Shown here in pieces: positions 935 through 39,041 of a stretch of DNA of 64,000 nt (positions within the stretch are counted from its first letter, which is position 1; every line of letters begins with the position of its first letter). A program made the translations under genes and the position numbers. Under the pieces are notes generated by a model. It did not search any database and was not told where the DNA came from. It was given only the letters and a program-made list of their open reading frames with translations. Source of the DNA: Psammoneis japonica (lineage: Eukaryota); contig QPGO01000129.1 in assembly GCA_008632985.1 (NCBI GenBank), positions 1 to 64,000 on the forward strand. The letters are read 5' to 3'.

Positions 935-3848
935 NTGTATGCAACCTTTCCGACCGTTAAGATGGGACAAATGGCTCTGTATGATGCTCACGCTTGTACC
1001 AGTTTAGACGGTGGAGCACCCCCATACACGCTTGACGAGATAGATGTAGCGTGCTCGTCGCTGCGGACTATCAAGTATTCTCAGTCCGTTATTGTCAATA
1101 ACCCAGAAACAAATCAACCGGCACTGTCAATTACACCTCATAAGGCTGGACATGTTGTGGGTGGCGCCTTTTATGTACTAAAACGACTCTTGGATGAAAC
1201 TGTTGTGGTAGTAACGAGTACCTATCACATTGCGAAGGAATTGCATTTGGGCTCTGCAACACTACTCAAGCATGGTTCTACACCTGATGTGCTGATAACG
1301 AGACCGGGTGGACCCGCTATGCCCGCTTTGGCACAATTATACAGCGGTCCCAAGCCAACACTACCGCCGCCCCTTGTGACTCAATCGCATAAGGCTATTG
1401 TGGAAACCGTTCTCCAGGTTCTTCGGCGAGACGGAAATGTGCTTTTGCCAGTCGATGCCAGTGGTAGAGTCGTGGAGTTAATTCTTCTGCTTAGTCAGCA
1501 TTGGGAGAAGCATCGATTGAGCGCCACGTATAACTTGGTTTGGTTGGGTCCCATGGTTTCAAACGTGTTGGATTACGCTCGTGCTCAATTGGAATGGATG
1601 GCGGCACCGTTGGGTCAAATGTTTGATTCCCAGAGAGGACACCCGTTTGCATTTCGAAACGTTCACTTTTGTGTCTCTACAGCGGAATTTGAAGCACTTC
1701 TTCAGGAAGAGCAAAATCCAACTGTGGTATTAGCATCCGGTGCTACTTTGGACTGTGGTCCCGCACGGGATGTCATGCTAAAATGGGCTGATAATCCAGA
1801 CAATGCAATTGTGCTGACAGACTCCTCACGGTGTATTTCAAGATCGCTTTCACAAGTCGTCCCTTCTGCAACTGCGACCGAGGATGCTGCCACTGCTGCG
1901 CCTGCAACAGTAACGACGGCCGCAGCTGCAGAAGCTACCGCAACCACGTCCGAGACCGAAGCTCAGCAACAACAAGAAGACACTGAGGAAGGTGGCGCAT
2001 TGGTTGTTGGATCAGTTATCCCCGCCGATCAAGTGTCTAAATATTGCACGTCGGCACAGCTTTTGATCAAGTGGTGCGAGGCAAAAAAGGCAGGTCGAGA
2101 AATGGACGATGTAATTGAAGTTGATGCGCAAGTGCCACATCGAGCGCCCTTGGCCGGTGCTCCCCTCAAGGCATTTCTAGCCCGTGAAGAAGCTGCTCGC
2201 TTGGCCAAACAAAAGCAAGAAGAACAACGAGCAATGATGCTGGAGGTTGAACTTGCCAAGGGTCGCTTGAGATTGGGGGAAGACGAGGACAAGAAGACTG
2301 CAAAGCCGGTGAAGCAACAGTTTGTGGCCAAGCGTCCCAAGAAGAAGAGCCGTTTCGACTCTAGTCTGTTCCTTAAGTACTCAAAGCCGTTGCATTGTAA
2401 GTTTAAAAAAGAGAAGGGGTAAAGCCTCTTTTTGATGCGCTTGAATTGTCTCTCACCTTGGTATTGTTTTTGTTTCCTTTTGCCGCAGTAACATTTGAGG
2501 TGGTAGAAGAGGCTGTGGGGATCGGACAGTCCGACTCAACTGCAAAATATGGCATTGGGGAATCCGTGGGTCGTTCCGGCGAAGTGTTGGAGGATGATTA
2601 TGGCATTGCTGTCATTCCAGAGCGATCGTCGACATTGTCACTGGCGTTGATCCTTCTCGGTTTGTAGGAGGAAGTGGCCGCATTGGAGAAGAGGTAATGA
2701 GAAGAGGCTTTGGCTTTGGGGTAGATGGTCGAGCTATGGGACAAGCTCCCAAGGCAAAGGGCGATGCAAACGCTCCTCTGGACAGGGAACGGTAAGACAC
2801 TGGTATTGAACAATAGGGCTTACTCTTGCTTTCTTCGCAGTTCGCTCATTTCTTGTTCTCACCATAATAGGACGGCGACGAAGGGATTGGAGATGAAATG
2901 AACGAGCAGGCACTGGAGGCGGCAGATTTGTCAGAGGGTACCGGCATTATAAGAGGACGCAACGGTCCTCCAATCAAGGTGTCCACGATGCCAAGGCGTC
3001 TGGAAGTGCTGGCCGAGGTCGCCTACGTTCCTTTAGAAGGCCGTGTGGATGCCCGGTCCGCTAGGCAGTCAATCCGCGCTCTTCAGCCAGGGCAAGTTGT
3101 AATCTTGGGAGGAACTGATTCCGAGGGCGATTCAGAGTCTTCCACTGAGGTAGCACTCTTGGCCGACGCGGTGCGTTCTTTTGTGACCGGGGAAGATCAG
3201 GGCAAGGGCAAGGAGAATGCAGTCGTTACACCGTCTGACGGGGAGACGGTAGAGTTAAATGTTGGTCATGCTGCGTATGCGGTGAGGCTTATTGACACTC
3301 CTTTCCTTACCAAGGAAGAAAAGGAAGCCGCAGCGGCGGCAGCAGAAGCTGGTGATGATTCAGCCCTGATACCAGAACCGGTTGAACCTTTCGAAGCTCA
3401 GTTGGGAGAATACACAGTGAGTCTATTAGACTCCGTAGCAACCGGACAGAAGGTGGCGCTAGATGGATCTATCGTCCTGGCTCCCCGGTCCGAATCATCT
3501 CGTGATAAGAAACGACCCGGAAGTCTCTACTTGAGTGCCGGAGACGTTTTGCTGACGGATCTTCGTGCCGAGGTTATTGCCCAAGGAATGAAGGCAGAAT
3601 ATAGGTTTGTAGCTCGATCCTTTCTATGTCGCTTGCTTGATGTTTTCTCGTGTGCTCAGACTACTCTTCTCTCTATTCTTGTACCTTACCTATGCAGTGC
3701 TCACTCTGGTTACTCCAAACTTGTTGTGAACGGCAAGATTATTGTAAAAAAAGATCAAGATAGCGGAAAGATTGATGTGGAGGGCCCGTTGTGCGAAGAC
3801 TTTTTTACAGTCCGCTCTGTTGTATGCGGACAATACGTCACACTCTAG
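935..3848 (+). CDS. CPSF2: Cleavage and polyadenylation specificity factor subunit 2 (CPSF100), 5'-truncated by the gap
   Basis: MBL/beta-CASP motifs YATFPTVKMGQMALYD, AGHVVGG, GNVLLPVDASGRVVEL, EDDYG, EGRVDARS and C-terminal VEGPLCEDFFTVR. Introns ~2397-2488, ~2792-2870, 3605-3697. At least one 1-nt frameshift near 2626. Confidence 0.93.
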
Positions 3849-4116
3849 AGAGAGATCACCTACTTGGTAGAGATCTTTATGATTACTTGTAGGTATCATG
3901 CGCTCCACTATGGTTGTCAGATACTAGCCTTGAGCCTCAAAGATTGAAAGGTATGGCATACTCAAAAGTCGTTTCGGGAAGGAATCCTTAATAGAATAGT
4001 CTCTAGCTCCTTTATGCCAAGAGCAAAAGCTTAGAACTATCTCATCTAACTCCATCGGGTGTGTACGAAAATCTGTGCGTAAAACATACATAATCTGCTT
4101 CCGCTCGTCAGCAGGG

Positions 4117-5604
4117 TTACGCAGTCTTTGTTTTGCTGCCCATGCCATACAAACGGTGATCTCCCCACAGACGCGGGATAAAACGGAACAAAAAGAGTTC
4201 TCCAATGACCTCCAGAATGCTAATGAACGAAATACCAGCCCACAAGCCAAATTGGCCACCAATGGCTGCAAACAGCCCTGCCAGAGTCTGCACCTTGGTT
4301 TCTTCCGACACCTCCTCACAAATCGTATCGTAATTGATACGAAGGTGGACAACATTCTGCTGAAATTCTGCCAGCGAAACATTCAACCGCTCCGACAGCT
4401 GCAGAACAAACGGTGCCGATAACTTCAAAGTGTTGGACCGCGTTGTGTAGACTGTTTCGTGACATGGCGGTGGAAAGCAGTCGCAGCTTTCAAGAAATGC
4501 AGGAGCGTCTTGTTTTTCAAGCGTGGTGCACTCTTCATCTGCAGTGTTACAGTACGGCAGCGATTCGACTTGTTTCCGGTTGTCACCCAAGCCTCGGCAG
4601 CCACACTGTTGTTCTAAATACTGGAATTTACAAAGAGCACGGCATCGAGGCTGTGTGTACTCTGGAGCCTCGGATTTGCAAGTGGACCACGGGTGGTCTC
4701 GTTCTCGAAAGAACTCAGTTGATTTAATGGAGATCCAACTCAGTTCACCAGGCTTGGCAACAGCAAAAGGCATTTGGTCGGCAATCTGGATGCCAGGCTG
4801 TGTGATGAAAACGTAAACACCGAGCTCTTCTGTGATTGTCAAAAAATCTGAATTATCTAGGTAGCCACTAAACACCAGTCTGAAATCGTGTGGGTGAGTG
4901 ATAATGATCACCACAGAATAAACGGTAGCTCTCGTTATTCAAAATCTTGACATGACTTACCCACCAGCTGGGCCAGGGCTGTAAACTCTTTTAACAGTAG
5001 AGAAGGTCCAGCAGAGGCCTAAATGCGTTATTACAGGTTTCCATACATCAGTGTTGTTTCTCACAATTCCGTTGAATTTGGTGATTGTATTGCGAAAGAA
5101 AGCTTCAAAAGGCTGCGAGATGAGTTTAAGCTCTTTATCGTTTCGAGGAAACTGAATACCAGTAGATTCCATCCTTGACTGTTGGAATAAATTTGAGCTG
5201 CAAACAGTCACATGAGGAAACGGCAAACTATCTGGAGCTCTCCAATACACGGTGGTTTCGGTCTCATAGTTTTGGTACTCCTTGATTAGTTCGTAAACGA
5301 GAAAACACATGACACCAAAGAAGGCCAACAAAATGATCCACCAAAGCAGGCGCTTCCACCGAAGAAAATGCTGTCGATCTAACGCATAGGGGATACCATG
5401 AACGGATGTTCCTTCAGACCATGTTGAAACAACGTCAAGAGTCGTGGCGTTATTATTCGGATCCCTCTGGTAGTCGTCTTGTTTTCCTCCGTGCAAACTG
5501 CCCCCGGTATTATCTTTCGCCCCACTTGTTGTTGTTGCAGACTCCACAGGCGGCGGATCTTGCGTCTCAATCACAACGCCGGCTTCATTTCCATCCTCCG
5601 TCAT
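4117..5604 (-). CDS. DEG/ENaC (amiloride-sensitive sodium channel family) subunit
   Basis: N-terminal TSVHG motif, TM1, FPHVTVC, GLCWTF, Cys-rich thumb (CGC, CFPPPCHE), TM2 IGGQFGLWAGISFISILE; GT-AG intron 4880-4960 joins the two ORFs in frame. Confidence 0.92.
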
Positions 5605-6874: not shown

Positions 6875-8930
6875 TTAAGCGAGACTGGGACGCAGCAACA
6901 GCACCTCACCACCATCCACGGATGCTGCTACCTTGTCGCCATGTACTGCAATGCTACCGACATCTCCGCAGTCAGTTGGAACCTTGCCTCGGCTGTATAC
7001 GGGGTGTCGCATGGTGGCGTTGTTACTTGTTGTGGCGTTGGGATTGTGCCGAAACATGGAGAGTGAGTTACTTCCTTGACCTCCGCTAAGGACAAAGCAT
7101 GTTGTCGTCTCTCCAAGAGGAGTGAAGAAAGTGGGATGATGAATCTTTTTTTGTTTGCCAGTGTTGATTGGGACGTGGCCGTAGTAGGTAGAGAGAGGAA
7201 CAGCCAAATTGCGAATGTCCCATACTTTCATCTCGTTATCCAGACCAGCTGCGTATTGACAAAGAGAGGAAACGTATCATCTCATGTTAGTCCAGACACG
7301 CTGCGTCAGTCAATGGATCATGCACAAAAATCGTACCTGTAAGCAGAACGTGCTTGTTCTGCCGATCCCAAACGACAGAGTGCGGTTTGGAATGAGCATC
7401 TTCCAAAACAGCAACAGGGCGACTCGAGTCACCATTGCATTTGTAGTCATGAATAGCCACGAGTCCATCGTCAGAAGCCGATGCAAGGGTCGAAGTCGTG
7501 CTACTTTGGAATTGAACAGCAGATACCTTGGCAGAGTGAAAACCAGACCTCCACACAACGCCGCCGTTTTGAATGGATTCTAAAGACGACACGGCAACTG
7601 ACTTATCTTTGGAACCCGTACCAATCATGATATCATGGGCATTTTGAATATTTACATCCATGGCAAAGATACCGCTGCTATGAAGCTCCTTGCCGGTTCG
7701 ACACTCCAATTTCGGCATTCCAGTGGATACGGATACGGTAGAAAGATCCCAGAGACAAACATATCCGTCATTTGCTGCTGTCAACAAACGAGACGGCATC
7801 CTTAATGATGCATTGGAATTCATCGTGTTGGTTGGTAGAAAATGAGTGCTTGAAATCCATCGACCGCTATGTGCCTTCCAAGAGAGGATCGGGTCGACAA
7901 GTCTTTCCATACGCTCCGTTGGACTGTTTTCATCATCTTCGCTAGCTTGTGGTGCTTTGTGACAGTCCCATAGTGCAACAATTCCGGCTTTACCTCCACC
8001 TACCAACCACGAAGCCTGTTTGGATTTATCATTGTCAGAATCGACAAAGGGGTAAAACTGCATGGAATAAATCGCTCCGAGACCTTGCGGTGGACAAAGG
8101 CGATTTCTCATTAGAGATAAGGAAGTGACGCTCTTTTCCTCCGTAATATTGGAGGAACTTTCTTGCTGTTTCATGTTCTCGATATCATCATAAGTTCTCT
8201 TGTCGTCCAATTCATATTGAACCATAGGTGATACCTCATACTCTTCCTCGACTTGTTCTACGACTTCATCCTCAACAGCATCATCGTTGTTGCTACTTGT
8301 ATTGGCAGTCGACAAGCTTGACTCTTGCTTCAATCCACGAATTCTTCGGCTCGAACGACGCGGAGGTAGCGTCCGTTGCTTGTTTGTCTTGACCCGTGAA
8401 CGCCATGGCTTCTTTGTTTTGGGCGCAAATGTTTCCGTGTTTTGCAGCAATCCCAATTCAGCAAGACGCGCATTGTTTCGTTTAATATTTCTCAGACGAA
8501 GCAGCTCATACTCTGACAAGCCGTCTGGATTGTTTACGTTGCTTTCCCCTTGCACAATACTCTCACTGTCGCTGTCACTAGAGCTATCGCTGGCTTCTTC
8601 CTGACAAGTAGAAGAGGTTTCGTCAGGTACTTTTTCAGCGATAACATCGTTGTGTCCCTGCAATTCCTTAGGTGACGCAGAGACCTCAACAACGGTGCCG
8701 AGTTCATTTGTTTTTGACTTGGAGGCACCCTTTTCTGTCACTATGGTCGACTCATTGTTGCCATGCTCTGGAGAGACGGCACGAGTTGCGCTACTCGGTT
8801 GTTCTTCTGGCACCGTTACTTGCACATCAGCGTTCTTGGGTTTCTTGTTGCTCTTCCAAAAGTACTGCAACGAATGCTGTACAGGCACGCCTTTCTTATT
8901 GGATTTCTGAGTCGATCGCTTTAGTCCCAT
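6875..8930 (-). CDS. WD40-repeat protein, WDR76/Cmr1-like
   Basis: LSEYELLRLRNIKRNNARLAELGL motif typical of WDR76/Cmr1 plus several WD repeats; intron 7249-7336 gives LLTAGLDNEMKVWD; ATG at 8930 (MGLKRS) is the likely start. Confidence 0.82.
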
Positions 8931-9031
8931 TGTCCAGGAGTGAGATAGGAAGTACTGTGTTGTGTGCTCGATGCTTGAAGGCCAACAGCGGCACAACTGC
9001 GAATGCAATTGGCTGGCGCAATGCGATATAA

Positions 9032-9280
9032 CGCGCTCGATTTTTTTGGAAACTCGCATCGGCCATGGTGGTCGCGGATCGCTCCATTTGGGTCGTGCGA
9101 GTTTTTGTGAAATTGATTGGAGATGCGACAACCTTAGAGTCGGCCACTGTGTTGGTCTGTGAACTATGAAGAGAGTGTCTCTCGGCTCTGAGGCTTTGGT
9201 GTGCACAGAGAGAGTTGTGTGGAGCATCGCTGTTCGCTGTGCACAGCTGAAGCACTTTTCTCAGAGAAGGTCAGCAAAAT
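9032..9280 (+). repeat. Paralogous copy of the JmjC-locus upstream/5' module
   Basis: Matches 18923-19310, e.g. GGTCGCGGATCG...ATTTGGGTCGTGCGAG, TTTTGTGAAATTGATTGGAGAT and CTCAGAGAAGGTCAG vs CTCAGTGAAGGTTAG. Confidence 0.75.
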
Positions 9281-11479
9281 TCCAACATGGGAAGAGAAGC
9301 TCAGCAAGGTTTTGGGACTTCTCGGGTGAGCAAGTGTGCCCCACACAAACACTGCCAGAGCTTTGATCTCATGGGCTGGGGGTGGTGCAGAGGCAGTGAA
9401 AACATGTGCCTTCTCCCCCTCCGCAACTCTGACCATGGCAAAAATCAAAGCAACTTGTTCCCCCACTGAGTGATGATGTGTCCGCGCCATTGTGCCTTTG
9501 CTCCTGCAGGTTGCTGAAAGTGGCAATGAGCAGGACAAGGCAGGAAAAGAAAACTGCAGTGAGCAGAGGGTCACGGTGCAATGGGTTTTTTGCAAATGTG
9601 CTGTGTTTGCTGGGCTTTCTGATGTGGCAAAATTTAATGACAAGAACATTGTGATGAAATGACCATGCCAACTTGGTCAAGACTTGCAACAGCTGCACAT
9701 TGTTGTCATGTGATGGGCAATGTTTGTGGCTCTCCCAAGGTCAATGATCTTTGCCCCGCTCGGTTGTCTCTGCACTGTGCAGAGCTTCGAAGCTCAACAT
9801 TGATTGTGAAGCACACCGGCATTGCTCAGAGCCTCAACACAATGCACAGCTGACTTTTTGGTGGCTTCCAACAAGTTCTCCAATCCAATGTCATCAAAGT
9901 CATCAAGTTCCTTCTCTGTGCAGCTGAGCCCAACACCCAGAAGGGTGCTGTGTGCCAAAGAAACTGAGGAATGAACAGCTGCACAGTCTGGTTCTTGGAC
10001 AGTGCTCCACACACTTGTGCTTCATGCACCATCTCATGCACCCATGATGATTTTGTGGATCAAGGTGAAGTTTGATTAAAGCCAAGCTGCTGGGCTTGCA
10101 AGTTAAGAGTTGGATGTTGTCCGCAGAGTTGAACAATCCACAGTCCAACAGACATGTGCTTGACGCCATTTCCTCCACATCAATCATGCCACTTGCTTCC
10201 TCTCCTTCCCCACTGCCTCCGCTCAAGCCTCCATGGGTTTTTAAACCAATGTCTGCACAACTTGGAGGTGATCCATTTTTTGGTTGTTTCAAATTCCTCT
10301 TTGAAGGAGCTTTCATTGCAGAACTTGGATGAATTGTGGCACTGTGAAGCTTGCAGTCATCAAACCCCGCCATTGTTTTGATCCCTTGTAAAACAGATGG
10401 CAAAACCTGTGGTCCACTCAAAAAGGGTGAAACATCCTGGTGGGAATCCCCTGCTCCATTCTCATGCAGAAGAACCATCTCTTGCAAATGTGCAAGACAC
10501 TGCAACAGTGATTGTCATTGGCCATTTGTCCACACAGCTGGCATGCAGCATGAGGTGCATTTTTCTTTTCATTTGACCAACGACCAACCACTCAGCAGGG
10601 TCTTCTCATCTCTCATGTCTGGCGGCTGTCACCCATTTCTAGAAACCCAAATTTCCATTCAGGTTTTGTTTTGGAGGGAAACCTGTAGAGTTGGACAGCC
10701 TGGGCAGTGACCTTTCACCGAATCGCAGCACACTGACCTCAGGCAAAACACACTCGCTGCGAATTCCCACGCCCCAAACAAATGGATTCTGAACTTCAGC
10801 AATCATGTCTGGGTGAGAAAAAGTGTGCTGCAAAGTCTTGAGAAATCCAGCACTGGCAGAAAGGTCCAATTGTGCCCTCCCAAACATTTCCAGCAATCAT
10901 TCAAGATCATCCACAAAATCTTCTTCACATTTTGCTGCCTTCAACCCCACTTGCCTCAGAGCATGATGGAAATCAACATCCAAAACTTGATGGTTTTCTG
11001 GCTTCTTTCCTTCTGTTGCTGACAATTTGTCAAAGTCTTCCCACACTTCCAACCCCAATGGCATGCATGAATGTGCAGCCCATGCAGTTGACCCTTTGCC
11101 CCCTGTCCAGAGACTTCCATGTTTCCATGATGGAAGAGAGGCAGCGGCAGGTCAACATGCTCCCATGCCGATTTGTTTGCTGGCATGATTGTGGATGGCA
11201 CTGGTGACTGGTGCAGCAGGCTTTTGCACTGCAAGCAATGCCACAAGAACAGACACTGGCCTCCCCACTCACAGTGCACTGCATTTAATGAAGGACATTT
11301 CGGCCATTGTCATGTTGCATTGTTTGCAGGGTGGCTTCAGTGCAAAACATTTTCCAGAATTGAGCCATGAGTGTCAAAACATTGGCTTTTTTTCTTTTTG
11401 CAAAAACACATCAAAAAAAACAAGGGGATTTGCACAGGACATCAATCTGTCTCAATCAAGCCATGACTGACATCTTCCT

Positions 11480-12670
11480 CAGTCACGGATCCCATGATTT
11501 GGGTCATGCGCAAAGAACTGCTGCAATTTTTCTCAGGCACTCATGTGACAAAGCAAGCAAGGGCAGGACAACAGGGCAACACAAAGCATCCAACACAGAG
11601 AAGATGTGTGGCAGAGTTGTTCTTGTCATCACTGCTGCTGCCGTCATTGATGTGTTGAACATCCTTTCAGTGCAGGAGGCAGAAGTGGTCTGCCAGTTGA
11701 GTTGTGAGCTTGGGAGAGCATGTCATTGGTGTGGCAGTGTGGAATGGTTGAGCGTCATTGCAGGCAATTGCTGCACTTCTCTCAGTGAAGGTCAGCGAAA
11801 TCATGTCTCTGGTTGAAGCCTCTCTTTGCTGAAAGACAAGCAAAGGTGCAAGGAGTCACCACATCATTCCCATGGCGCTTTTCACAGATTCCCAGTCTGA
11901 GCATGATGGCCCTCTGCAGTGCAACTTTTGCATTTGAGCTTGGACTCCTTTTCATCTGAGCATGGCAGTGATGTGAAGAAGGAGGAAATTGAAAGCTGCA
12001 AAGTTCTTGTGGGTTGTGCTGGAATCACTCTTTGCAGGATCTGGCACAGCATGATGGCAGCAGTGCTGGCTTTGTGGCCCACAACTTTGTTCCAAAAAGG
12101 GAGCTGCGACAACTGATGAAGCTGGCTGCAGCACCAATGACAATGTCAAGATTGACAAGGACAAAATGGATTGGATGCAAACTTGCAGCATCAAAAAAGA
12201 GCATGTGCTTCACAAGGAAAGGCCAGACAGCAAACATTGTGATGCTGGTCATGACCCCATTCCTTGGCTTGGAAGAAACAAAGCACTGGCATCAAACCAG
12301 CCCAAATTGTGTTGGCTTCACCTTTTCAATGGAATCCACTCACCTGGCTGCAGCAGCAAATGTGACATTTTTTACCTCCATTTCAACCACACAAAGCTGG
12401 CGACATTGCTTTTTTTGAGCGTTGAACTCATTCACAATGATCTGGCTGACCTGCATGGAACAAAACACTGCTGCACTCTTGCAGAGCCTTTGTCATCACT
12501 GAAAAAGTTGAAAGTGATGGATGAGTTGGAGAGAGAGTCTTGCAAAACCATCTCCAAAGCTGACTTTCAAGCTTGGCACAAATTCACCTGCAAGCCTGTG
12601 GTTCTCGCAGTGTGTGACTTGACATGGCCCACTTCACAGCATTGGATGCCACAACAATTGTTCCAAGTGC
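11480..12670 (+). pseudogene. Hypermutated paralog of the 5' half of the JmjC gene at 19232-21242
   Basis: Colinear with ~18960-20220: EIESCKVLVGCAGIT vs EIEHCEVLVGCAGIT, PFLGLEETKHWHQTSPNCVGFTF vs PFLGLDEAKYWCQTNPDCVGFTF, LKVMDELERESCKTISKADF vs LKAMDKLERVSCESLSKADF. Confidence 0.93.
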
Positions 12671-12680
12671 TGCAAGTTGT

Positions 12681-12915
12681 CGCGCTCAATTTTTTTTGAA
12701 AATTCGCAGCATTGTGGTGGTCGTGGATCATGCCATGTGTGTCGTGTGAGACAAACCTTTGCACAAAGTGAGATGATGCTGCTGTGCGGGTGTCACGAAG
12801 CATCCTCTGAGATGCTGGAAATTGTTGTTGTCATTGCTGCTGCCACAGTTGACACATTTTCAATGCAACAGGTTGAAAGTTGCAAGCTTGAAATCCCCTC
12901 TCATCTTTGGCTGAA
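12681..12915 (+). repeat. Further mutated copy of the JmjC-locus upstream module
   Basis: Aligns with ~18923-19150 (CGCGCTC-polyT-GAAAATTCGCA; GTTGACACATTT..CAGGTTGAAAGT..AAGCTTGA vs GTTGATACATTT..CAGATTGAAAGT..AAGCTTGA). Confidence 0.75.
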
Positions 12916-15900
12916 GGTGCCACAAGAACACCTTCAACAAGGAGGCAAGCTGGAGGACAAGGCCGTGTTGATCGGCAAGCTGCTGGGCCAGTGTGAAGAA
13001 GAAAGCTGTGCACAGAAATGCAACATTTCGTGCACACTTGGACCTCCATTTTGAAAAACAAAACAAAAGCCAAAGAGGAGCTCATTGTGCTGGTTGTTGA
13101 GTGGGCAGCAGATGTTTTGTGAGCCTGCAGGGTTGATTGCAGCTGGCCTTGGCTGTTGTTTGCCGCACGCTGTTGTGTGACTCTGCACATGGCTGCATGT
13201 GGTTTTGTGCAGAAATGTGTGAGTGGGGTCATCTTTTTGTTTCTCTTTTCAAGGATGGGGCAAGCTCCAAAAAACAAGAAATGGGTGTGCACAGAGAGCT
13301 TTTTTTGCACTTAAAAAAAACAATTTCTTGAAGTCACACTCAGCACAACAAACTCCTTCTCTTCAACTCTGGTGGTTTCCACCAAAATCACAGTCATGCA
13401 AGTGGACACAAAAAATGCAATGTTCCATGCATGCCTCCACTCTTTGACATTGGAAAAATCAAAAGTTTGAGGTGTTTGTTGTGCCAAACATGAAGCAGGC
13501 TGCTCAACATGATGTTGCACCCACACTTGTGTCACCCAGAGCTGGAGCTGGCCAAAGGAAGCTTGAGCCTGTGCCCGGCTCTGGGGCAGATGCACTCCAG
13601 CCTGCAGGAGCAGGGGTTCATGCAATGCTGGGCCCACACAATTCTGCAAGCAATCTCAGAGGCCCAGTTGTCAAGCAATGAATGTGCCAACAATCTCCAA
13701 CAAGAGGAAGGCAATCATTTTGCAAATGCATGAACTCCTCAGCACTTGGAAAAGGGTGTCATTTCCAGCTTGCCCAGGTGTCTTCTTCAGACATTGAAGA
13801 CAATGCCTGGCACCCATCTTTGTTTTCATGACATGTGCCAGCCCTGGTGGGTGGCACTCTGGTGCTGTGTGACGTGGGCCCATCATGGAATTCTGTGTGG
13901 GCTGCAAGCTCCACAGTTTGCACACTGGACAATGAACACATTCATCTTTGACATTGAGTGAATGGCTGAGTTTGCAATGCAACTGCGCACCCCTTGGCAC
14001 TCAAAGTTTTGAAAATCCATGTGCCCCAGCCACACAACTCTGCAGATGTCAAAGAATTGCTTTGTGCAAAAAATGACAAAAGTTGTCAAATGGATTGCCC
14101 AATGACTGCACTGCCAAATGGCACAAGATGCCGCCAAAGTCACACAGAAATGAGTGTGCATGTGTGCAGCACACATGCAGCACATGATGCAACAAAAAAC
14201 CTCAATGCCACAGGTGAGTCCCAGCAGTGTGTGTGAGCTGGAGCAAATCTCACAAGTGGACAAAACAAAAAGCCTTTGGCTTTGCAAAGCAGGGAGCACA
14301 AAACAATTTTGAAGGAGATTGTGTGCAGAAATGTGCGCCACCAAAAAACATTCAAGTGGGGCAGCATGGCAGCATGATGAGGTTCACCCACCTGGAGCCA
14401 GCTGGAGCATGCCTTGATTGGGTGCAAGTGTGTGATGCAGAAGATTGCTCCATTCAAGGTGGTCCTTGGCAGCAAAGCTCAGAGTCTTGTGCCAACTTCC
14501 AGGTGCCTGCACTGCTTTAACTTGAACAGCATGCCATGCAGCTGTGGCAGTGATGACATGCCTGATGTGATTGCCAGCACACAGCAGCAACATCAGAGTG
14601 TGCATTGTGGTGATTGAGGCTGCCTGTCTTGCAGCAATTCATGCCATTGGGACTGCCCCCCCCCCTCCCATGAGGAAAACATGCACAAGCATTTTAACCC
14701 ACAAAAAAGTTTTTTGTGGAATGAATTTAATGTGCGCACTCTTCCTGCCACAGCTTGTTTCTTGTCTCCAGTGTTGCACCACAATCTGCACACATTGCAC
14801 AGCCAGGAGTTGCTTCCTGTTCAAGGAGTTTGCTGCAACTGCAGCTGCAACATCTCATTGTTCTCCCTGCACATCATGTGCAGAGTGTCAATTCAATGGC
14901 TCAAGGTGCATCAATTTTCAACTCACAATGTCATCACAAGAGGTTCTTCTTTTTGTGGCATGTGTGGGGTCCAAGTCTTCTGCTGTTCTCACACTGCCTT
15001 CTTTGTTCAGCGAGCATCCTTGCAGCCACGTTGAACTTTCCTCCCACCAAAAGGTGCACTGGTTCCTCCAAAGCCTCATGTGGTCTCTTTGGATGCATGT
15101 TCCTGCCCAGCAAAATGTGCTTCCTCAGCCCGTCTCTTTCCATGGACTCCCCCACGTCACATGCCAAAATGGCCCTTGAGCCATCATCTGTGCCAGGCAC
15201 ACTGCATCATCTTCTTGCACCTCAGTGTCCTCATGCATCCTTGCACCACACCACTTTGCTGCATTCTTGACAATCTTTGGGTTGATGAAGCAGGAAAGCA
15301 GCATTGCAGTGGCCTTGCATGTTGGAGATTTCCCATTTTCACTTGTGTGATTGTGTTTTTCACAATGTGCACCCTTCTGCTTGTGAAGGATGCAACACAC
15401 AACTGTTTCAGCAACAAACCATGCACCACAAAGGTCATGTGCTTGGTCATCAATCAAGGCTGGGAGACTGACATGCTTCAAAAAATGGAGACAAGGCTTG
15501 CCTGTTGGTGGGTCATCAAGGCCATCACCACCAGCAACAAGCTTGTGCATGAACTCAACCATGACCTTGATGTTGTGGTGGAGGCTGTGATGCTTCTGCC
15601 TCTCCTTCCCACCTCACCAGGTGTCAATGAGAACTCCAGAGCTTTCTCTGACTCTCTGTGTTGAAGAACAAATCCACCCTTTGCTGAAAAACAGGATCTC
15701 TTCATCTCCCCAACCACAAGCATTGACGCAAGAAACCACATGGCGCCAGGACAGCCAAGAGATTTTCTTGCAATGTTGTTGGTGCAGATGACTTCCACAA
15801 CATGTGGAACATGATGAAGCTTTGGCTTGGCTTGCAGCAAAGGAAGGGAAGCACTGTGAGCTCTGGAGAGGGGGGCAGCTTGTTCACTCCCCATGAGCCG

Positions 15901-17779
15901 CTTCTTTTAGAGGCACACACACATTGCAACCATGTTTTTGAGCTCAGCTCCATGCCAAAATCACCAGCAAAATGTTTCACACCATCACAGCCAACATTCT
16001 TGATGAAGACACATGAGGGATCGGGGTTGACCCCATTGGCTGACAGCCAAAATGGGGGGGCAAAGTCATTCAATGCCATGGCTGGTTGTCAACTGACTGG
16101 CAACAATGTGCAGAATGCACGAGAGTTGCAGCATTGCACACTCTGACTTTCCATTGTTTGAGGAGAGAGTGCACACTGTTGTGCAGAAAATTGTGCATGT
16201 AAAAAATGCTGAAAAAGCCACAGCCAACTGTGCTGTGCAAACCTGAAAAGTGTGAAGGACCAAGCAAAGGCTCGTTGTGGTGACTTGGGCATGCAAGGGC
16301 AGTGTGGTGCTGTGGGAGCACAGTGGACTGCACGCACACAAGGGCACATGTGTGTGGGAAAGACAAAGTTGAAACCAAGCTCAATTGAAGAGCACAAGCA
16401 CCAGAAAAACTAAATTGTGTGACATGAAAAAGGCAAAAATCCAAACCAAACTGAGTGGTGCATGCATTTGGCCAAAGCTTGTGTTGGGAAAGCTGACTCT
16501 GACATGAGCTGAAACATGTTGTGAAGCAAACGCACTCCCGCTGAATGCTGTCACTGACACTTTGTGCACTTGGGCAGCCAAAGGTTTTGGCGAGTGCTCT
16601 GATGGGTCAAAAAAAGAGAAAAGTGCAGGCAAGGCATTTGTGCAGCAGCAACTTGCCCCCCGGGGCTGGCAGATGTGATGCTGAGCAGATTGCCCAGCAA
16701 AAACTGGCCCAAAAAGGAGAGTTGGGAGCCTCAAAAGGGAGCTGTCTTGAGAGGCGGAGTGCAGCAGGATCAACTCCCAACTCTTCCAGCCCCCTGTGCC
16801 AGCAGTGCTGTGAGATTTGCGTGGACATGCACGTGTGCAACAACACATGTGTTGAGTCAAGCACATTTGTGTGTGCCACAGCCTGTGTGGTTTCCTCAAG
16901 TTTTTCCTCCTTCTGCCATGGGCACTTGTGTGCAACATGTGCAAATTTCAGCAAAATTGCACACAAACAAAAATTGCAGCCAAAGAGCATGGTGCAAACT
17001 GACGAGTGATCAGATCCAATCTGAAAAGTCTCTGAAGAAAAATGGCTGTCAAACAATGCATGCCGATCTGCCTGCTGCTGGTGCCAGTGCTCTCAGATTT
17101 GACAACTGCACACAACATTTGTGTTGAAAATTTCTTGTTGCTCACAAGACAGTGTTCATTGAACTTGTGAAATGTTTGACATGCAAACCAACACACTGAC
17201 ATGGGATTGAGACATTTTAGACAGAAGTGCCTGAAGCTCATTGAACACATTGTTTGGACATCTTTTTCCAGCAGCTTTCAAGTGTTGTCATTCGGACACA
17301 TTTTCTGATGTCAAGTGCATTTTGAGCAGTGCCTCTTGGCACCACCATAATTTGACACAGCATTGGGACATCTGTTTTTGCAAACAAGATTTGTGACACA
17401 AGTGCCCAGGGCCTGGCACAAAGATTCTTGATGGAAAGTCTGCATGAGAGTGCCCCAGTCATGCTGGCTGGTCCGATTTGCAATCGCGCTGAATTGTTGT
17501 GTTGTTTCCATGTTGTTGGGCTTTCATCCTGCCAGTCCTCATAAAATGCATTTCATTGGGAGGAAGCTGAGCATGAGAAGAAATTCATGTGCAAGAGAGT
17601 TGTGCTGTTGCTTGCTTTTGCTCTCTGTGGGGCAGGCGACATCAGAGGTGTCAGCGGAGTTCAAACCAAAGGAACCCACATCCTCCAATGCAAGCAAGAA
17701 TGCAAGAGCAAACTGTTGCGGGGATGGTTGTCTTTTGTTGGTTGGTGCTTGTTCTCACAATTTCTTCTTTCTTTTGTGC

Positions 17780-18860
17780 TTTCACCTTTCCATCAAAGAA
17801 TGTGTTGAATGAAGAAGTTCATGACACTGAAGAAACCCCCGAGAGGGAGGAAGCTGATGGCAAGCTTGTTCATGAGATGCCACAGTGTGCTGATTGCCAG
17901 TTTTGCTTTCTGACAGCTCCCATGCATCACAAGTGCATTTCAGGATCCTTGTCCTCCCAAGGGAGAATGTTGCAGAGCACACACACACCCCCCACCCAAA
18001 TGTGCCATCATCAGTGAAAAGGATTGTGAAGGCAAAGGAGGGCGCCGCACTGGAGACAGGATAAAATGCCGGGCCAACAACTGCCCAAAAGCTTTTGGAG
18101 CCTGCTGTGACCCCCATCCAGATGGACAATGCTTCCTCTTGAGGCCAGCTTTTTGCACATTGAAGAAAGGTGTGTCCAGGATCCACGACAAGCAACGGCG
18201 GTCAATGTTCACTCACATCACTCACACCTGCTGTTCAGCACAATGCGGCTGGTGCAAAATGATCTGTGAAAAGCAAAGAGATGCTCTGAGTGCTTCTGTG
18301 TTCATCAGCAGCCAGGAAGCACCTGCCTGCCCCCTTTCCCTGCCACCCCCGATCTGCGAGCTGGCATTTTCTTGGTGCTGACCTGGCATTGAAAAGAGGC
18401 CACAGCTGCAACAGCATTGCAGCAGAAATGCTGGCCAGGAATGCCATTTCAGTTGTGTCAACACTGGACATTGTGACATTGGGGCTCTTGATGACTGATG
18501 CTTTGGCTGCCTCTGCTCTGCCACAAGCGGCTCTCTCACTTCCTTCATCCTTGAAAGCTGTTCAAGGGAGCATGGCTCCTCCACTGCTTCGAGAAAGCAA
18601 GTTTCCAGAGTCAAACTCAAGTGGTTCTTTGAACCATTGCTGCAAGATGGGTGTCAACCCACAACAGAACAAACACTTTGACCCTGCCAGGGGCTGCAAA
18701 ACTTGCCAGCTAGTGGAAGCTGCCTGTGCCCTGTCGTCGAGCTTCTTCTTGTTCATGAGACTTTTCTCGCTGTTTTTCTCTGCGAAGAAGAAAGTGTCAT
18801 CTGCAGGATCCACAGATGACACTGAGCTGTCACTGGCAATGGCGATCAGTCCCTGCCGGT
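17780..18860 (-). pseudogene. Probable eroded gene divergent from JmjC
   Basis: ORFs 18562-18822, 18235-18471 and 17782-18195 read as one frame broken only by TGA codons (consistent with CGA->TGA); family not recognised. Confidence 0.4.
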
Positions 18861-19231
18861 AGATCGATGTGTAGATGCAATGAATGCGATGATTGGCACA
18901 TCGGCACCCCCATCAGAAATTTCGCGCTCTTTTTCTTTTGCGAATTCGCATCGTCATGGTCGCGGATCGCGGACGATTTGAGTCGTGCGAGAGAAACAGC
19001 CGCATCTTTTCTCTCGCGCTTCGCGTGAAGCTCTAGAGAGCTTGGCGACGCGAAGTATCCGCCCAGTTGTCGTCGTTGCTGATTCCGTCGTCGTTGATAC
19101 ATTTAACGCAGCAGATTGAAAGTAAGAAGCTTGAGACCCCCCTTATCCTTCTTTTGTGAAATTGATTGGAGATACAACATCCTTAAAGTATATAGGAGAA
19201 GTCGTCGGATTGAATTGTGAACTGAAGAGAA

Positions 19232-21242
19232 ATGGCGGTGGCTGCAAAGTGTTGTCGGGCATCATTATGGGCGATTGCTATGCTTCTCTCAGTGAAGGTT
19301 AGAAAAATAACCTCCCTGATTGAAGCCCCTGCACTGAAAGACAAACACAGGCGTAAGGAATCACCGCATCATTCCCGTGGTGTTTCTTCGCAGAAACCCG
19401 GGCTGAGCACGACGGCCCTCCGCGATGCAACTTTTCGCTTGAGCTTGGACTCCTTTCCGAGCGTGGCGGTGATATGAAGGACGAAATTGAGCACTGCGAA
19501 GTTCTCGTGGGTTGCGCTGGAATCACTTTTTACCGGAATCGGCAGCACGACGACGACGATGCTAGCTTTATGGTTCACAACTTTATTCCGAAGGGAATTG
19601 CTACAACGGACGAAGCTGATTGCAGTGCCAACGACGATATCAAGATTGACAACGACGAACAGGATTGGAGACGAATTTATCGTAGCAAAAAGAATTTGTG
19701 CTACATAAGGGAAGGCTGGACAGCAAACATCACGGTGCCGACATACAATCCCATTCCTCGGTTTAGACGAAGCGAAATACTGGTGTCAAACCAATCCGGA
19801 TTGCGTTGGCTTTACCTTTCCAATAGAATCAACGCGCTTGGCTGTAGCAGAAAATATGACATTCTTCACCTCCATTTCAACCATACGTCGTGACGACGGT
19901 AGCTTGAACCAATGGCGAAGCTACATTTCCAACAATCCCGACAGAGCCGGCAACATTGTTTTTCAAAACATCAAACTCATTCACGACGAACTGACCGACC
20001 CGTACAGAACGAAACACTGCTGCACTCGTACAGAGCCTTGCCATCGCTAAAGGAGTTGAAAGCGATGGACAAGTTGGAGAGAGTGTCTTGCGAAAGCCTC
20101 TCCAAAGCTGACTTTCGAGCTCGGTACGAATCAACCCGCCAACCCGTGATCCTCGTGGGGTGCGACTCGACATGGCCCGCTTCACATAACTGGACGCCGC
20201 AACAATTATTCAAACGATTTCGTAATGAAACCAACTTTGTTGGTAGATTTCACAAGAGACTCGGCTATGCTTACAGTATCGAAACCTTGGGTTGGATTGC
20301 AGACGCCATGGCATCGGGTGAAGAATACTACGTTTTTGATAACCTATTATCCGATCCCAGCATTTTCTCGCTTCGCAATGATTTTGAATCAGAACCGGGT
20401 CCGATTGAAGACATGTATCTCAAGCTTGAGGATTTTCCTCCTGGGTATGGCCCGTCACGTTGGTTTACCTTTGGAGGTCCCGGCTCTGGGCTGGTAAGTA
20501 CAGACACAAATGATACAAGTAACAACGGCTTGGTGGGACGAATTGTTGCCGAATCGTATCCAACGAAGCATTCCGTTTTGTTTGTTGACAGCCGCCTCAC
20601 TCTGACCCGATTGCGAGTGATACGTGGAACTACTTGGCTTATGGTCAAAAGTGGTGGGTGCTGTATCCGCTGGAAGAGGAAGACGACCACGACAACTTGC
20701 ATTGCGATGACCGTTGCTCGGCGTACATGTGGAATACAGCGCATTGGTTTGCAACTGTGGGAATCAATGCCGCAAGGAATGAATACGATGCCACAGATGA
20801 TAAAAAGAGACCCATCCATGTCTTACAGAAACCGGGTGAAATCTTGTACATTCCAAATGGTATGGTTCACGCCGAAATGAATCTTGCCCATTCCACAGCC
20901 GTGGCTGCGCTCTTTGCCTCGACACAAAATTTGGAGGCTGTTTGGGGCACTATTGTTGGTCTAGGAGCTGATAAACATTGGAGACGTGTATACTATGGAG
21001 GCATTTTGAACAAGGAACAACGCAGGGTCGTTCGCGACGTCAGCTACGAGTGGCCGCCAGTCGCTGGAGACATGTACTATTTTGACGGCCCGTTTCTTGA
21101 CCCCGCAAAAAGATTAGGAAAAGAAGCAGATGAATACCGGGAATATGATGATGATGATGAAATGTGGGAGGACGACGACGAAATCTGGGACGAAGACATA
21201 GACGATGACGACGCATGGGAGGAGTACTGGGATATAGTTTGA
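19232..21242 (+). CDS. JmjC-domain 2OG oxygenase (JMJD6/JMJD8-like) with N-terminal Cys-containing repeats; frameshifted as assembled
   Basis: RWFTFGGPGSGL|PPHSDP (HxD), YGQKWWVLYP, LQKPGEILYIPNGMVHAEMNL; intron 20494-20591; acidic tail; frameshifts near 19745 and 20040; start codon uncertain. Confidence 0.85.
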
Positions 21243-21629
21243 AATGCGGAGCCACCACTGGATGATTGCGTACTGCTAGGGATTCTCCTTAGATGGTAAG
21301 GCGTCTCTAGAGAGAGAGAGGCTAGAATCCTAGTATTCTGTTTTTACGTTTGTTGAAGCTAGAGTCTTTCGGAGTGGTGATAATTTTCTTTGGCTTCTTC
21401 AAAGGAGCGATGCTCGAAGCATGTTTTGGTTTCGCGCCATAATTTCGAAAAATTGACTGCGGTACAATGAACAACACAAATTCGTATGTAGAATTCGTAC
21501 GAGTTGCTACACAGAAATCCGAGTATCATTTTTGTCAGCATCACACTCCTGTTGTTGCAAATAACGCGTTGTCGAGATCTAAGTTGTTTGATTCTTCGTC
21601 TCTTATGCCATTTTGGCAAAGCAGACACA

Positions 21630-25818: not shown

Positions 25819-26802
25819 TTACATGTTTGGAAGTATAATACCTAGACTCTTGAGACGCTCCATAGTGACAGCATCTTGCTTTTTGCGTTCTTGCAGCTTT
25901 CTCCGTTTGACAGCCTTGGCTCGATCCGATAGAGACTTTCGATTGAGCGTCATAAGTCTCCCGTGATCCTTCATAATGTTGCCGAAGGTGTCGCTTTTCT
26001 CCATATTATCCTCCTCGTCAGTACTTGCAACCTCTGCGGCCTTGCGTTTTCCTAGAGACTGAGTATCGGAAACGGGACCTTCGTTGACAACACGCCTCGC
26101 AAAAGGCAAGTCCACGTATTCGAGCAAATTAGTACCAACCGGAGGTACCTTTCGGTAAGGATCATCTTGAACCCAGGAACGCAAAAGCGAATAAAAGGAT
26201 GCATCTGCCGCATGAGCATCAAAATTAATCCTTCGATCCACAACATGAAATATAGAAGACGCATTTTCCGGCATGGCATCAAGGATTTGTTCATCAGAAA
26301 TGTTGACAGACGGATACCCAAACGGCTTTCCCGTCGGTCTGGCAGAGGGCACATAAGGCCTCTTTGTACTGCGTAAACGAGGCTGAGGAGGAAGTTTAAC
26401 AGGTGATTTCACACCAATTTCTTTTTTGGCGGATGAACCAGCAAACCTGTCGTTTGGATCCGTGCAGACATAGCCCGTAAGGTTCGGTTGAAAGGGCGCG
26501 GGCCGAATCAGCACCTCTATTCCGCTCTCGTGGACCGCGTACACTCCATCATTCCTTTCGACATATTTGGGATTCTTAGACTTGGCCTTTTCTGTGGCGT
26601 CTATGTCACCTGTTGACGGTTTTGCAACGGCAGACTTTTCTTTGTTTTGTGTTGCTTCAGTGTCTGCCGTCTGCTTGTCAGCGGCAGCAGGACGAGCGGC
26701 AGCAGGAGCAGCAGAAGCAGAAGCAGCAGAAGCAGGAGCAGCAACAGGAGGAGCGGCAGCAGGAGGAGCGGCAGCAGGAGTAGGAGTAGGAGCGTCTGAC
26801 AT
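25819..26802 (-). CDS. LIN37-like (DREAM/MuvB subunit) protein
   Basis: FHVVDRRINFD...SFYSLLRSWVQDDP resembles the LIN37 core motif; Ala/Pro-rich N-terminus. Confidence 0.6.
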   Translation of the reverse strand: MSDAPTPTPAAAPPAAAPPVAAPASAASASAAPAAARPAAADKQTADTEATQNKEKSAVAKPSTGDIDATEKAKSKNPKYVERNDGVYAVHESGIEVLIRPAPFQPNLTGYVCTDPNDRFAGSSAKKEIGVKSPVKLPPQPRLRSTKRPYVPSARPTGKPFGYPSVNISDEQILDAMPENASSIFHVVDRRINFDAHAADASFYSLLRSWVQDDPYRKVPPVGTNLLEYVDLPFARRVVNEGPVSDTQSLGKRKAAEVASTDEEDNMEKSDTFGNIMKDHGRLMTLNRKSLSDRAKAVKRRKLQERKKQDAVTMERLKSLGIILPNM

Positions 26803-28348: not shown

Positions 28349-28644
28349 GGTGCATGGATCTATTATCTGCTTCTTTCACCGCTCATCCCTCATCCACATC
28401 TCGTTTCGTCTGAGAGGAGCTGTTATCAGGTTTAGGCGTGCATTCCATCCACTAAGTCGCGATGATGTGCGTACGTCCGTCATCCGCATCGCTGCGAACG
28501 GCACCCCGCGGCGCACGCGGCACGCGGCACCCCCCGAACCCCGAAATCATCGACCATGACACAAAATGAGATATCACCGACCGCAGATCATCATGCGCTT
28601 GGACTACAAAGCAAAGAGTTGAGCATAGCTATCCATCAAAAACT

Positions 28645-34225: not shown

Positions 34226-34971
34226 CGTGTCAGTGAAAAGGCAAGCTCAGTGGCAGAGCTTCGCCGATCGCAGGACGAGGTCGAGGGTTCGAGCCCCTCC
34301 CTTTTTCCGCACACACGTGCTTGAACCGGCAACCCGGAAACGGGTTGAGGTCACTTGCTTGACGAAGTCGCCCCACCTGCATTCGACAACCCTGACAAAC
34401 ACAAGACGTGTTCCAGCCCCAGGTGATGCACAAAACGACAATCGGGTTTTGAGCACAATTTGTGCATGTTTTGGTGCATGTGGCATTTTGACAAAAACAC
34501 TTGGACGGATTGACTTTCACAGGCTTCTGGAGCATGCACATTTGAACAGTTTTTTGAGGGGTGTTCAAATCCTCATGGGACATGCATCACAAACTTCCTC
34601 AGCAGACTCAGTGCTGATTGCACGTCAGTGGATTTACACTGAGATTTTTTTGCAGGCAGAAAACCTGCCAAGCAGCATCGTAGAAAAATGTGTTTGGGTG
34701 ACATCCAAACAACGGCAATGTTTTTGTCGAAAATCATCCGTTGCACTGCGAATCTTTTGACGCAATGAAAAACATGGATGGCACAATGACAATGACATTG
34801 CAACACTCACACGAGTCTTGTTGGTGTTGCAAAACATTTGTGTTTGTGTGAATCTGTGCTTTTTGTGGTGAAAGTTCGATCGCAAGTTGGGGGCCGCGCA
34901 AAAATCACGCAAATGTTGTTTTTGTGCACGATTTGGTTCACGTGCGGCTGGAACACGTCACAACAAACAAC

Positions 34972-38900: not shown

Positions 38901-39041
38901 ATGTCTAAAACACTCTTTTGTGCACGGTGTTGACCTTCTCTAGTTTACTCTAGCTAGCCTTGCCGTTCGGCACAGGATTGATCACCCTTGGTTCCCTTCG
39001 GCTAGACCCGCTAGAGTTTTCATTCCCCATCACAGTGCGAG

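Follow-up and report, generated by a model that had tools for sequence, protein, structure and literature searches.

How could a stretch of DNA lose nearly all of its TA and CG dinucleotides, while the gene from which part of it was duplicated keeps them? The question is raised by the window analysed here, the first 64,000 nucleotides of contig QPGO01000129.1 in the Psammoneis japonica assembly GCA_008632985.1 (forward strand). It holds an intact JmjC/cupin gene (19232-21242, forward strand) and, upstream of it, a converted partial duplicate that we call copy A (11465-12666, forward strand), in which TA amounts to 0.08%, CG to 0.83% and TG plus CA to 23.2%. An earlier note on this DNA had described the two as a mutated JmjC paralog beside its unmutated neighbour. 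Its observation is confirmed below, and its interpretation is partly supported, with corrections. Our best explanation, to which we assign a probability of about 0.65, is that two near-complete transition processes have acted within blocks of this DNA, one specific to TpA and the other a nested loss of CpG. The window is diatom nuclear DNA, in which ordinary genes alternate with multi-kilobase intergenic blocks.

The gene, its copies and the direction of change

Copy A, which consists of the upstream region and codons 1-328 of the gene, was compared with 18943-20214 by a transition-tolerant local alignment, the well-aligned core of which pairs 11696-12666 with 19209-20214. This core comprises 948 columns (727 identical, 177 with transitions and 44 with transversions) plus 81 gap columns. 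Not one of the 29 TA steps of the gene is retained: 15 have become TG, 10 have become CA, and the other four read TC, GA, TT and GC. A single CG out of 64 survives, with 28 turned into TG and 27 into CA. The remaining 14 dinucleotides were retained at 548 of 840 places (65%), and at such a retention the chance of keeping 0 of 29 TA would be about 0.35^29, roughly 6e-14. The statement that nearly every alignable TA and most CG had become TG or CA is therefore accurate, TA sites were mutated far beyond other sites, and all ten example strings quoted in support are present in the alignment. Two halves of the pair are also found by blastn, 11747-12392 against 19254-19886 (75.0% over 648) and 12391-12666 against 19941-20214 (77.9% over 276). 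Recoding the sequences as purines and pyrimidines raises these values to 93.4% (649 columns) and 95.2% (273 columns), indicating that most differences between copy and gene are transitions. The transitions on the gene's TA and CG sites number 82 of the 177; the other 95, on 759 other sites, are ordinary divergence, as are the transversions and indels, and the caveat of the earlier note was justified. The destruction of all 29 TA while transitions touched 95 of 759 other sites is the sole, and indirect, measure of the rate.

The unconverted partner is a complete, expressed gene. A spliced contig of 2290 bases from run X2, which behaves as RNA, joins 19077-20492 to 20591-21442 and skips 98 bases with GT..AG ends, which places the only intron at about 20493-20590; the 20492/20591 joint is seen in X2 and absent from X1, a DNA run. 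Compared to the window, extra single bases are present after 19431, 19740/19741 and 20038 in both X1 and X2, and after 19686 in X2. With an N inserted at each of these four sites and the intron removed, one open frame of 638 codons extends from 19232 to 21242. The frame breaks in the window are thus small assembly deletions, and the gene is not broken. Single-base deletions of this kind may make other genes of this assembly look like pseudogenes in the same way. In an exhaustive profile search, 182 relatives came in at E <= 0.001. P0094, a protein of 614 residues, is the best of them; its matched part is 59% identical, and it has the long N-terminal region in common with the gene. The Pfam cut-off for JmjC (24 bits) is passed by all five orthologues scanned (P0094 34.3, P0095 32.8, P0096 28.4, P0097 42.6 and P0099 47.4); the second exon of the gene alone scores 21.8 bits, under the cut-off, and is 71% identical to P0094. 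In this exon H2, D4 and H92 are invariant across 11 aligned sequences, and their position in the known HxD...H motif suggests that they are its metal ligands.

Copy A, by contrast with its partner, is dead. It carries a stop at codon 9 (CGG to TGA), a changed residue in 113 of 303 comparable codons, and indels. Its homology to the gene stops at position 20214, that is at codon 328 of 638, and the JmjC profile covers orthologue residues from about 390 onward, so the JmjC core is missing from copy A. As a dead piece of the 5' part, it is no full paralogue; the converted sequence is indeed a host-gene duplicate, as the earlier note had it, but a truncated one and one of three. The second, older partial copy (copy B, 12674-13097, forward strand) begins 8 bases past the end of copy A, head to tail, and matches 18917-19381 with 396 aligned positions, 254 of them identical, 91 transitions and 51 transversions. 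The third and most decayed (copy Z, 9102-10076, forward strand) matches 19151-20171, with 505 of 881 aligned positions identical, 240 transitions and 136 transversions. Their alignment scores stand well above those of shuffled sequences: 156.5 for copy B against a mean of 53.8 (sd 5.4, maximum 69), and 117 for copy Z against a mean of 55.4 (sd 7.7, maximum 76.5), with unrelated block segments scoring 46-60. When 135 stored WD40 and JmjC relatives (P0001-P0135) were compared by tblastn with the four larger blocks described below, copy A was the only match, orthologue proteins matching 12215-12729, and copy Z gave no protein-level match in the same search. Across the three copies TA is at 0-0.3% and CG at 0.8-2.4%. 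A 1.3-kb unit made up of the promoter and codons 1-328 would have been duplicated in tandem, leaving at least three such non-functional copies upstream of the gene.

Which of the two states came first was assessed with 15 orthologues aligned to the gene, each gene codon being compared with the aligned copy codon over 303 codons. The encoded residues differ at 113 codons; the majority of orthologues has the residue of the gene at 55 of these, that of the copy at 26, and neither one at the other 32. Columns in which 8 or more of the 15 orthologues agree side with the gene 17 times and with the copy three times, and all three exceptions lie outside TA and CG. Strongly conserved codons with a TA or CG change back the gene nine times and the copy not once; examples, from gene to copy, are Tyr300 (TAC to CAC), Arg304 (CGC to TGC), Cys186 (TGT to CAT) and Thr323 (ACG to ATG). 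Composition agrees with the direction given by the orthologues, the TA/CG-free state of the copy being common to 9.5 kb of unrelated DNA around it. Judged by the orthologues, then, the state of the gene is ancestral and the change runs from TA and CG to TG and CA; the outgroup comparison that the earlier note had called for does not find TG and CA to be ancestral.

The same results bear on the idea that the pattern is a sequencing or base-calling artefact at modified bases, or that the polarity is reversed and the gene gained its TA and CG. This was tested and is not supported. The assembly is imperfect, as its single-base deletions relative to the read-derived contigs attest, but a 3960-base X1 contig spans 8953-12912 with 0 differences from the window. 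The converted letters are therefore present in reads and are no assembly artefact, with the understanding that X1 may share its sample with the assembly and confirms the letters, not an independent individual. The indels and transversions are those of an old, real paralogue, and the orthologues back the gene state. An artefact or a reversed polarity is thus hardly credible.

Blocks defined by position

Copies A, B and Z lie in one of five blocks that total 25.7 of the 64 kb, 40% of the window. Per 500 bases, TA falls in the blocks from about 20 to 0-3 and CG from about 28 to 1-9 over most of their length, and TG plus CA rises from about 70 to 105-130. Overall, the blocks (25.7 kb) contain 0.31% TA, 1.58% CG and 22.25% TG plus CA, and the rest of the window (37.8 kb) 3.95%, 5.58% and 14.77%, respectively. 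The losses of 3.64 points of TA and 4.00 of CG are matched by a gain of 7.48 in TG plus CA, the summed pyrimidine-purine steps amount to 24.14% in the blocks and 24.29% in the rest, and base composition is unchanged. The conversion consists of transitions within pyrimidine-purine steps, and of nothing else.

Block I (9166-18735), which holds the copies, is intergenic, the genes on its two sides being divergently oriented. Its TA-free stretch runs over about 9166-18710 and its CG-poor stretch over about 9490-18730; copy Z lies at the left edge, where the block is flanked by a WD40-repeat gene (7287-9260, reverse strand). Block edges are sharp, within about 100-300 bases. On the right, block I ends about 200 bases before the start, at 18917, of the upstream region of the JmjC/cupin gene that is homologous to the start of copies A and B (18917-19231, forward strand), and this region has 3.5% TA and 9.2% CG. 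The duplicated coding part of the gene has 3.3% TA and 7.2% CG, the rest of the gene 4.4% and 5.9%, and the intron 5.2% and 6.2%; eight other open reading frames (ORFs) of the window range over 2.9-4.1% TA and 4.6-6.3% CG. Only one partner is therefore mutated, upstream region, coding part and intron of the other all being normal, and the sharp edges together with the normal TA and CG in the homologous part of the gene imply that targeting follows position and neither pairing nor homology. The distance from block I to the last X2-covered base of the WD40 gene (8977) is about 190 bases, and to the start of the spliced contig (19077) about 350. Such a position fits a process bound to non-transcribed or silent DNA. 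Chromatin-domain targeting, which the earlier note had proposed, can reasonably be inferred from this arrangement, and the blocks would then be silent, methylated chromatin. No RNA run is listed as containing copy A, and the X2 contigs that cover the gene leave block I uncovered save for a 33-base piece, which we do not count as evidence of silence. Gene copies within the block would have been converted along with all the surrounding DNA, and the working copy beyond the block edge would have been left untouched.

Duplicated DNA inactivated by transitions brings to mind the repeat-induced point mutation (RIP) of fungi. RIP changes C to T at CpA and so creates TpA, is triggered by homology and mutates both copies. 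Conversion in the window resembles RIP of ascomycete fungi in being a transition-only, dinucleotide-specific inactivation of duplicated DNA with extreme dinucleotide skews. It differs in that TA is destroyed, the homologous 1.3 kb of the partner gene is unconverted and the converted DNA is mostly at single-copy depth. A homology-triggered, RIP-like process might nevertheless have struck all copies, with selection keeping the lineages in which the gene was spared, and block I does contain at least three copies of the 1.3-kb unit as well as a high-copy repeat. On this account it would be hard to see neutral positions of the gene, the upstream homologous part and the intron, with normal TA and CG, or a conversion that runs in the direction opposite to that of RIP over 9.5 kb, the greater part of which has about single-copy depth and no detectable homology. 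The block far exceeds the 1.2-kb homology and halts about 200 bases short of the homologous part of the gene. We therefore regard a homology-triggered origin as very unlikely, in agreement with the earlier note, which had set the pair apart from pairing-driven RIP.

A further possibility is that a composition free of TA and CG was selected, through avoidance of a nuclease or sensor or in a structural role, and is no mutational footprint at all. CpG and UpA suppression are both known in viruses, according to the excerpts of the virus literature consulted. Depletion to 0-1 per 500 bases goes far beyond viral avoidance as described there, copy A is a dead gene fragment with 113 of 303 codons changed, a stop and 81 gap columns, and the loss of TA and CG with an exact mass balance into TG plus CA argues against selection. 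We give this possibility only the slimmest chance, and return to mutational conversion within position-defined blocks.

Inside block I, a high-copy repeat (13708-14575) stands out by an X1 word depth of 368-1501, compared to 35-85 elsewhere in the block, and several contigs end loosely at 14271-14318. At 15234-15237, 15727, 15745, 18711 and 18768, inside block I and at its right edge, the window and X1 contigs disagree, the differences being TGCA versus CATG, CG-to-TG, CG-to-CA and TA-to-CA. They could come from the other haplotype or from close paralogues; if allelic, they would be recent events of the TG/CA conversion kind.

The other blocks are similar, with variations. The window start truncates block 0 (1-500), after which comes a run of N, and the first 500 bases contain no TA, one CG and 113 TG plus CA; composition in steps of 500 bases puts 432 N (an assembly gap) within about 501-1000, directly after this TA/CG-free window start. 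Block II (30801-38900) is free of TA over its whole length, whereas CG is scarce only at about 31500-32900 and 36600-38000, and 16-30 CG per 500 bases remain in 33000-36000. It contains a 1.4-kb direct repeat pair (32801-34247 and 34869-36315, forward strand), with 1430 aligned positions, 91.6% identity, 100 transitions and 20 transversions. Block III (50501-53000) is depleted of both TA and CG, as is block IV (54900-60000), where CG depletion starts only at about 56200. Two purine-rich direct repeats of about 350 bases lie 4.4 kb apart in block IV (55129-55484 and 59497-59852) and are about 74% identical, or 89% in purine/pyrimidine code; they bracket most of the block and could be the ends of an old element. 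The 332-residue ORF between them (55929-56924) matches no Pfam family, and a search against proteins of 182-581 residues found none related to it at E <= 0.001.

Among 102 block ORFs of at least 100 residues none reaches a Pfam cut-off, the one sub-threshold match being to DUF5439 (E = 0.0067). The claim that host-gene duplicates are hit, and not only transposable elements, therefore stands in its first part, since host-gene DNA is converted, and its transposable-element part is unproven. In the block DNA of 9000-19000, 31000-39000, 50500-53000 and 55000-60000, TGA is the only stop left, TAA and TAG having been lost. This loss produces long spurious open frames; they occur on both strands of the blocks, are rich in Cys, His, Gln and Trp, and could give rise to false gene calls.

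Two separable processes

The losses of TA and CG had been treated in the earlier note as one conversion. Their common direction, towards TG and CA, is confirmed, but they do not coincide. About 5 kb of the blocks is TA-free yet keeps its CG, namely 33-36 kb and two margins (9166-9490 and 54.9-56.2 kb), and CG loss is always nested within TA loss. The two losses are therefore separable. One may still imagine a single dual-specificity enzyme or pathway that converts both TA and CG, which are both self-complementary pyrimidine-purine steps. Common blocks, a common product and the exact mass balance would be accounted for, and enzymes of the ADAT2 type acting on both A and C in DNA are cited in the accessible text of a preprint on another alga (bioRxiv 10.64898/2026.01.13.699255). 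The roughly 5 kb of TA-free DNA with near-normal CG speak against such an enzyme, as does the position of the target base, which would be on the 3' side in TA and on the 5' side in CG. A single dual-specificity activity seems to us improbable, and we favour two processes.

The first would be fast and TpA-specific, changing A:T to G:C and leaving TG or CA according to the strand struck. It would be strand-symmetric, act site by site and work poorly where the target A precedes another A. The second, slower and nested within the first, would turn CpG into TpG or CpA, most simply through deamination of 5-methylcytosine in methylated silent DNA; equal shares of outcomes on the two strands, as found at the CG sites of the pair (28 TG and 27 CA), are expected of such CpG decay. 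Strand symmetry holds for TA and CG together. Along copy A the 43 TG and 37 CA outcomes follow each other at random (runs-test z = 0.73), and the variance of the local TG/CA skew in the blocks, 0.94-1.18 at 100-1000 bases, is binomial, that is, of random choice. Strand-random outcomes argue against the editing of one transcript or of long single-stranded tracts.

Both processes continued beyond the first round of conversion. In the 1.4-kb repeat pair of block II, CG stands opposite TG or CA at 32 places and TG opposite CA at 10, which indicates that both acted after that duplication, independently in each copy. Of 131 CA and TG steps in the gene/copy alignment, 13 were turned into the complementary step by a double transition, compared to 8 among 530 other dinucleotides (Fisher p = 2e-5), and 9 had a single transition, which would create TA or CG, compared to 113 among the 530. 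Evidently a new TA or CG is resolved again, half the time to the other product, and activity was sustained after saturation.

The few surviving TA provide a lead to the target motif. In an analysis that left out the second copy of the repeat pair and took its expectation from the mostly coding rest of the window, 62 TA were found in the blocks where about 916 were expected, and 22 TTAA where about 34 were expected. With two target A's in each TA, a model of survival by 3' neighbour gives 0.81 for A, 0.27 for G, 0.10 for C and 0.03 for T; the negative log-likelihood was -91.4 for this neighbour model, which fits well, compared to -29.6 with uniform survival and -85.1 with an additive steady-state model. 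These values suggest T-A-(not A) as the motif, and the poor action on an A followed by A would make TTAA the main survivor. Hyper-editing by ADAR is comparable in changing A to G with a preference for 5' U. ADAR is an RNA enzyme that leaves strand-clustered changes, and its 3'-neighbour preference favours G and disfavours U; in the blocks outcomes are strand-random and a 3' T is the most favoured neighbour.

The base attacked in TpA could be thymine and not adenine. A thymine modified in silent DNA by a TET/JBP-type dioxygenase, to 5-hydroxymethyluracil (5hmU) or a further oxidised form, would mispair with G, and 5hmU and 5-formyluracil are mutagenic. A T-to-C change on either strand looks identical to A-to-G in double-stranded DNA, so that sequence alone cannot separate the two, and the 3'-neighbour rule can be restated equally as a 5'-neighbour rule for the T of the other strand. 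In dinoflagellates a TET/JBP-type enzyme produces 5hmU, which is concentrated on repeats and silences transposons, and in Crypthecodinium thymine had earlier been reported to be replaced preferentially in TA and TC (both in the accessible passages of PMC11572971). Against this, no sequence preference of 5hmU was found in Breviolum, according to the passages of PMC11071213 available, and TC is not depleted in the blocks like TA (5.87% versus 6.90% in the rest). We consider thymine modification unlikely, and prefer an attack on adenine: by analogy with the proposal made for the chlorarachniophyte Bigelowiella natans, we infer that the first process is enzymatic DNA editing by an adenine deaminase of the ADAT2/TadA kind, and it may serve as a genome defence. 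GC-biased gene conversion, considered separately, was rejected, since AT, AA and TT steps are not depleted and the CG changes run the opposite way.

Several points weigh against the explanation by two processes, or against parts of it. For the motif, the ancestral composition of the blocks had to be assumed, with the mostly coding rest of the window as stand-in. The motif model predicts the strand at 10 of 14 informative TA sites of the gene/copy pair, with a log-likelihood gain of 1.9, and a test of gains in four-letter words across the blocks disagrees with it (r = 0.21, p = 0.44). As to direction, variable codons with TA-only changes, mostly swaps among Ile, Met and Val, side with the copy six times and with the gene four times, with three ties, so a few TA of the gene may be young. 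Pfam, tblastn and a search for ORF relatives gave no demonstration that the blocks are of foreign or transposon origin. Finally, the combination of TpA and CpG loss is without direct precedent, CpG being unmentioned in the accessible text of the B. natans preprint.

The window, known systems and significance

Outside the blocks the ORFs of the window encode ordinary host proteins, identified by Pfam, among them CPSF100, an ASC-type channel, a 2OG-Fe(II) oxygenase, a sulfatase, a G-beta/WD40 protein and a lysine methyltransferase. The WD40-repeat gene to the left of block I, recognised by Pfam, has 93 relatives at E <= 0.001, the best about 50% identical, and all those that carry an organism name are from diatoms (Skeletonema, Nitzschia, Seminavis, Fragilariopsis, Cyclotella and others); they mark the source of the window as a diatom. 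The 2OG-Fe(II) oxygenase (27113-28375, reverse strand; PF13532, AlkB-like family, E = 2.7e-27) is encoded between blocks, where the window is rich in genes; it is probably a DNA/RNA repair dioxygenase of the ordinary kind, and we make no link between it and the conversion process. Rfam and tRNA scans of the 64-kb window returned no matches, and Tandem Repeats Finder reported only a coding repeat at 26680-26793.

The phenomenon is not confined to this genome. Relatives of the JmjC/cupin gene are encoded at 36 metagenome loci, and one of these, the 10,045-base eukaryotic contig L017, carries a relative that is 39% identical with the same N-terminal architecture. Just upstream of it, a block of 1.25 kb (3251-4500) has 0-2 TA, 2-6 CG and 46-60 TG plus CA per 250 bases; at its right edge TA is back to 23 per 250 bases, and a weaker depleted block follows downstream (7001-9000). 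The 1.25-kb block shows no convincing homology to the neighbouring JmjC gene, with scores of 57-90 against a null maximum of 69. A second contig, L016, has a depletion at 2751-4098 similar to the weaker block of L017. In a third, L015, the first 5000 bases have 0-6 CG per 250 bases and normal TA (9-25), which reads as CpG decay without the TA process. The other 33 loci contain no such block, but most of them are short. As for diatoms, we found no report of TA/CG-free blocks in the full-text literature searched, recent diatom genome papers included, in which subscription journals are largely missing and bioRxiv supplements are not visible.

Part of the pattern has a parallel in diatoms. In Cyclotella cryptica, methylated repeat regions of up to 30 kb alternate with unmethylated gene-rich regions, and methylation is mainly at CpG (passages of PMC5124317). 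The window is similar both in the conversion of CG to TG and CA expected of CpG decay and in its architecture of multi-kilobase, repeat-rich blocks between gene-rich regions. CpG decay accounts for the CG half only, and the C. cryptica passages mention neither CpG depletion nor TA loss (PMC5124317).

The nearest known case is found in an unrelated alga. Mettrop et al. (bioRxiv 10.64898/2026.01.13.699255), in those parts of the preprint that were accessible, report TpA hypermutation of integrated giant-virus and virophage DNA in B. natans. Mutation-accumulation lines showed a rate about 1000-fold that of the rest of the genome in two silent integrated viral regions, and the changes are almost only A-to-G or T-to-C, all on TpA. 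The genome has 124 clusters that are poor in TpA and rich in CpA plus TpG, and an ADAT2-like deaminase was proposed (bioRxiv 10.64898/2026.01.13.699255). Common to that system and ours, as far as the accessible text describes it, are the change from A:T to G:C at TpA, giving TpG or CpA, its confinement to regions with normal neighbours, and the TpA-poor clusters with much CpA plus TpG that it leaves behind. The differences are several. The present organism is a diatom and no rhizarian, and the loss is saturated, TA being at 0.31% versus 3.95%, compared to 3.3% in the giant-virus region and 6.0% elsewhere in B. natans. CpG loss accompanies TA loss here, and the text of the preprint seen mentions neither CpG, diatoms nor trinucleotide context; a 3'-neighbour rule was obtained for the window. 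The targets here include a duplicated piece of a host gene as well as intergenic DNA that seems ordinary, and no viral or transposon genes can be recognised in them. The B. natans rate was measured in lines, and conversion in the window is known from sequence alone. On balance, the blocks would best be filed beside the TpA-directed regional hypermutation of B. natans, as a saturated case in a diatom, with CpG decay and on host-gene duplicates. They point to a location-targeted rewriting that has so far been reported only in one unrelated alga.

It is tempting to generalise. We put forward, tentatively and at somewhat less than even odds, that diatoms possess a position-targeted DNA-editing process that erases silent DNA irreversibly by converting T-A-(not A) to TG or CA on both strands. 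It would be common to chlorarachniophytes and possibly old within the SAR group (Stramenopiles, Alveolata and Rhizaria), would act on any DNA in a silent block, host-gene duplicates included, alongside the decay of methylated CpG, and would run on past saturation, leaving blocks permanently free of TA and CG and, in this species, a large share of the genome rewritten.

If the conversion is enzymatic, it would be a second, independent eukaryotic sighting of TpA-directed DNA hypermutation, in a major marine algal group and in a form far more complete than in the first report. The gene and copy A constitute a natural before-and-after record of known direction, from which specificity, strand symmetry, sharpness of targeting and persistence can be read, and its fingerprints would be useful in looking for the enzyme. 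For the annotation of genomes, converted DNA may escape repeat and gene finders, since codons containing TA or CG (for example those of Tyr and Arg) are removed together with TAA and TAG, and blocks of this kind could be found by a simple dinucleotide scan. For the biology of diatoms, the finding bears on how these algae dispose of partial gene duplicates and repeats.

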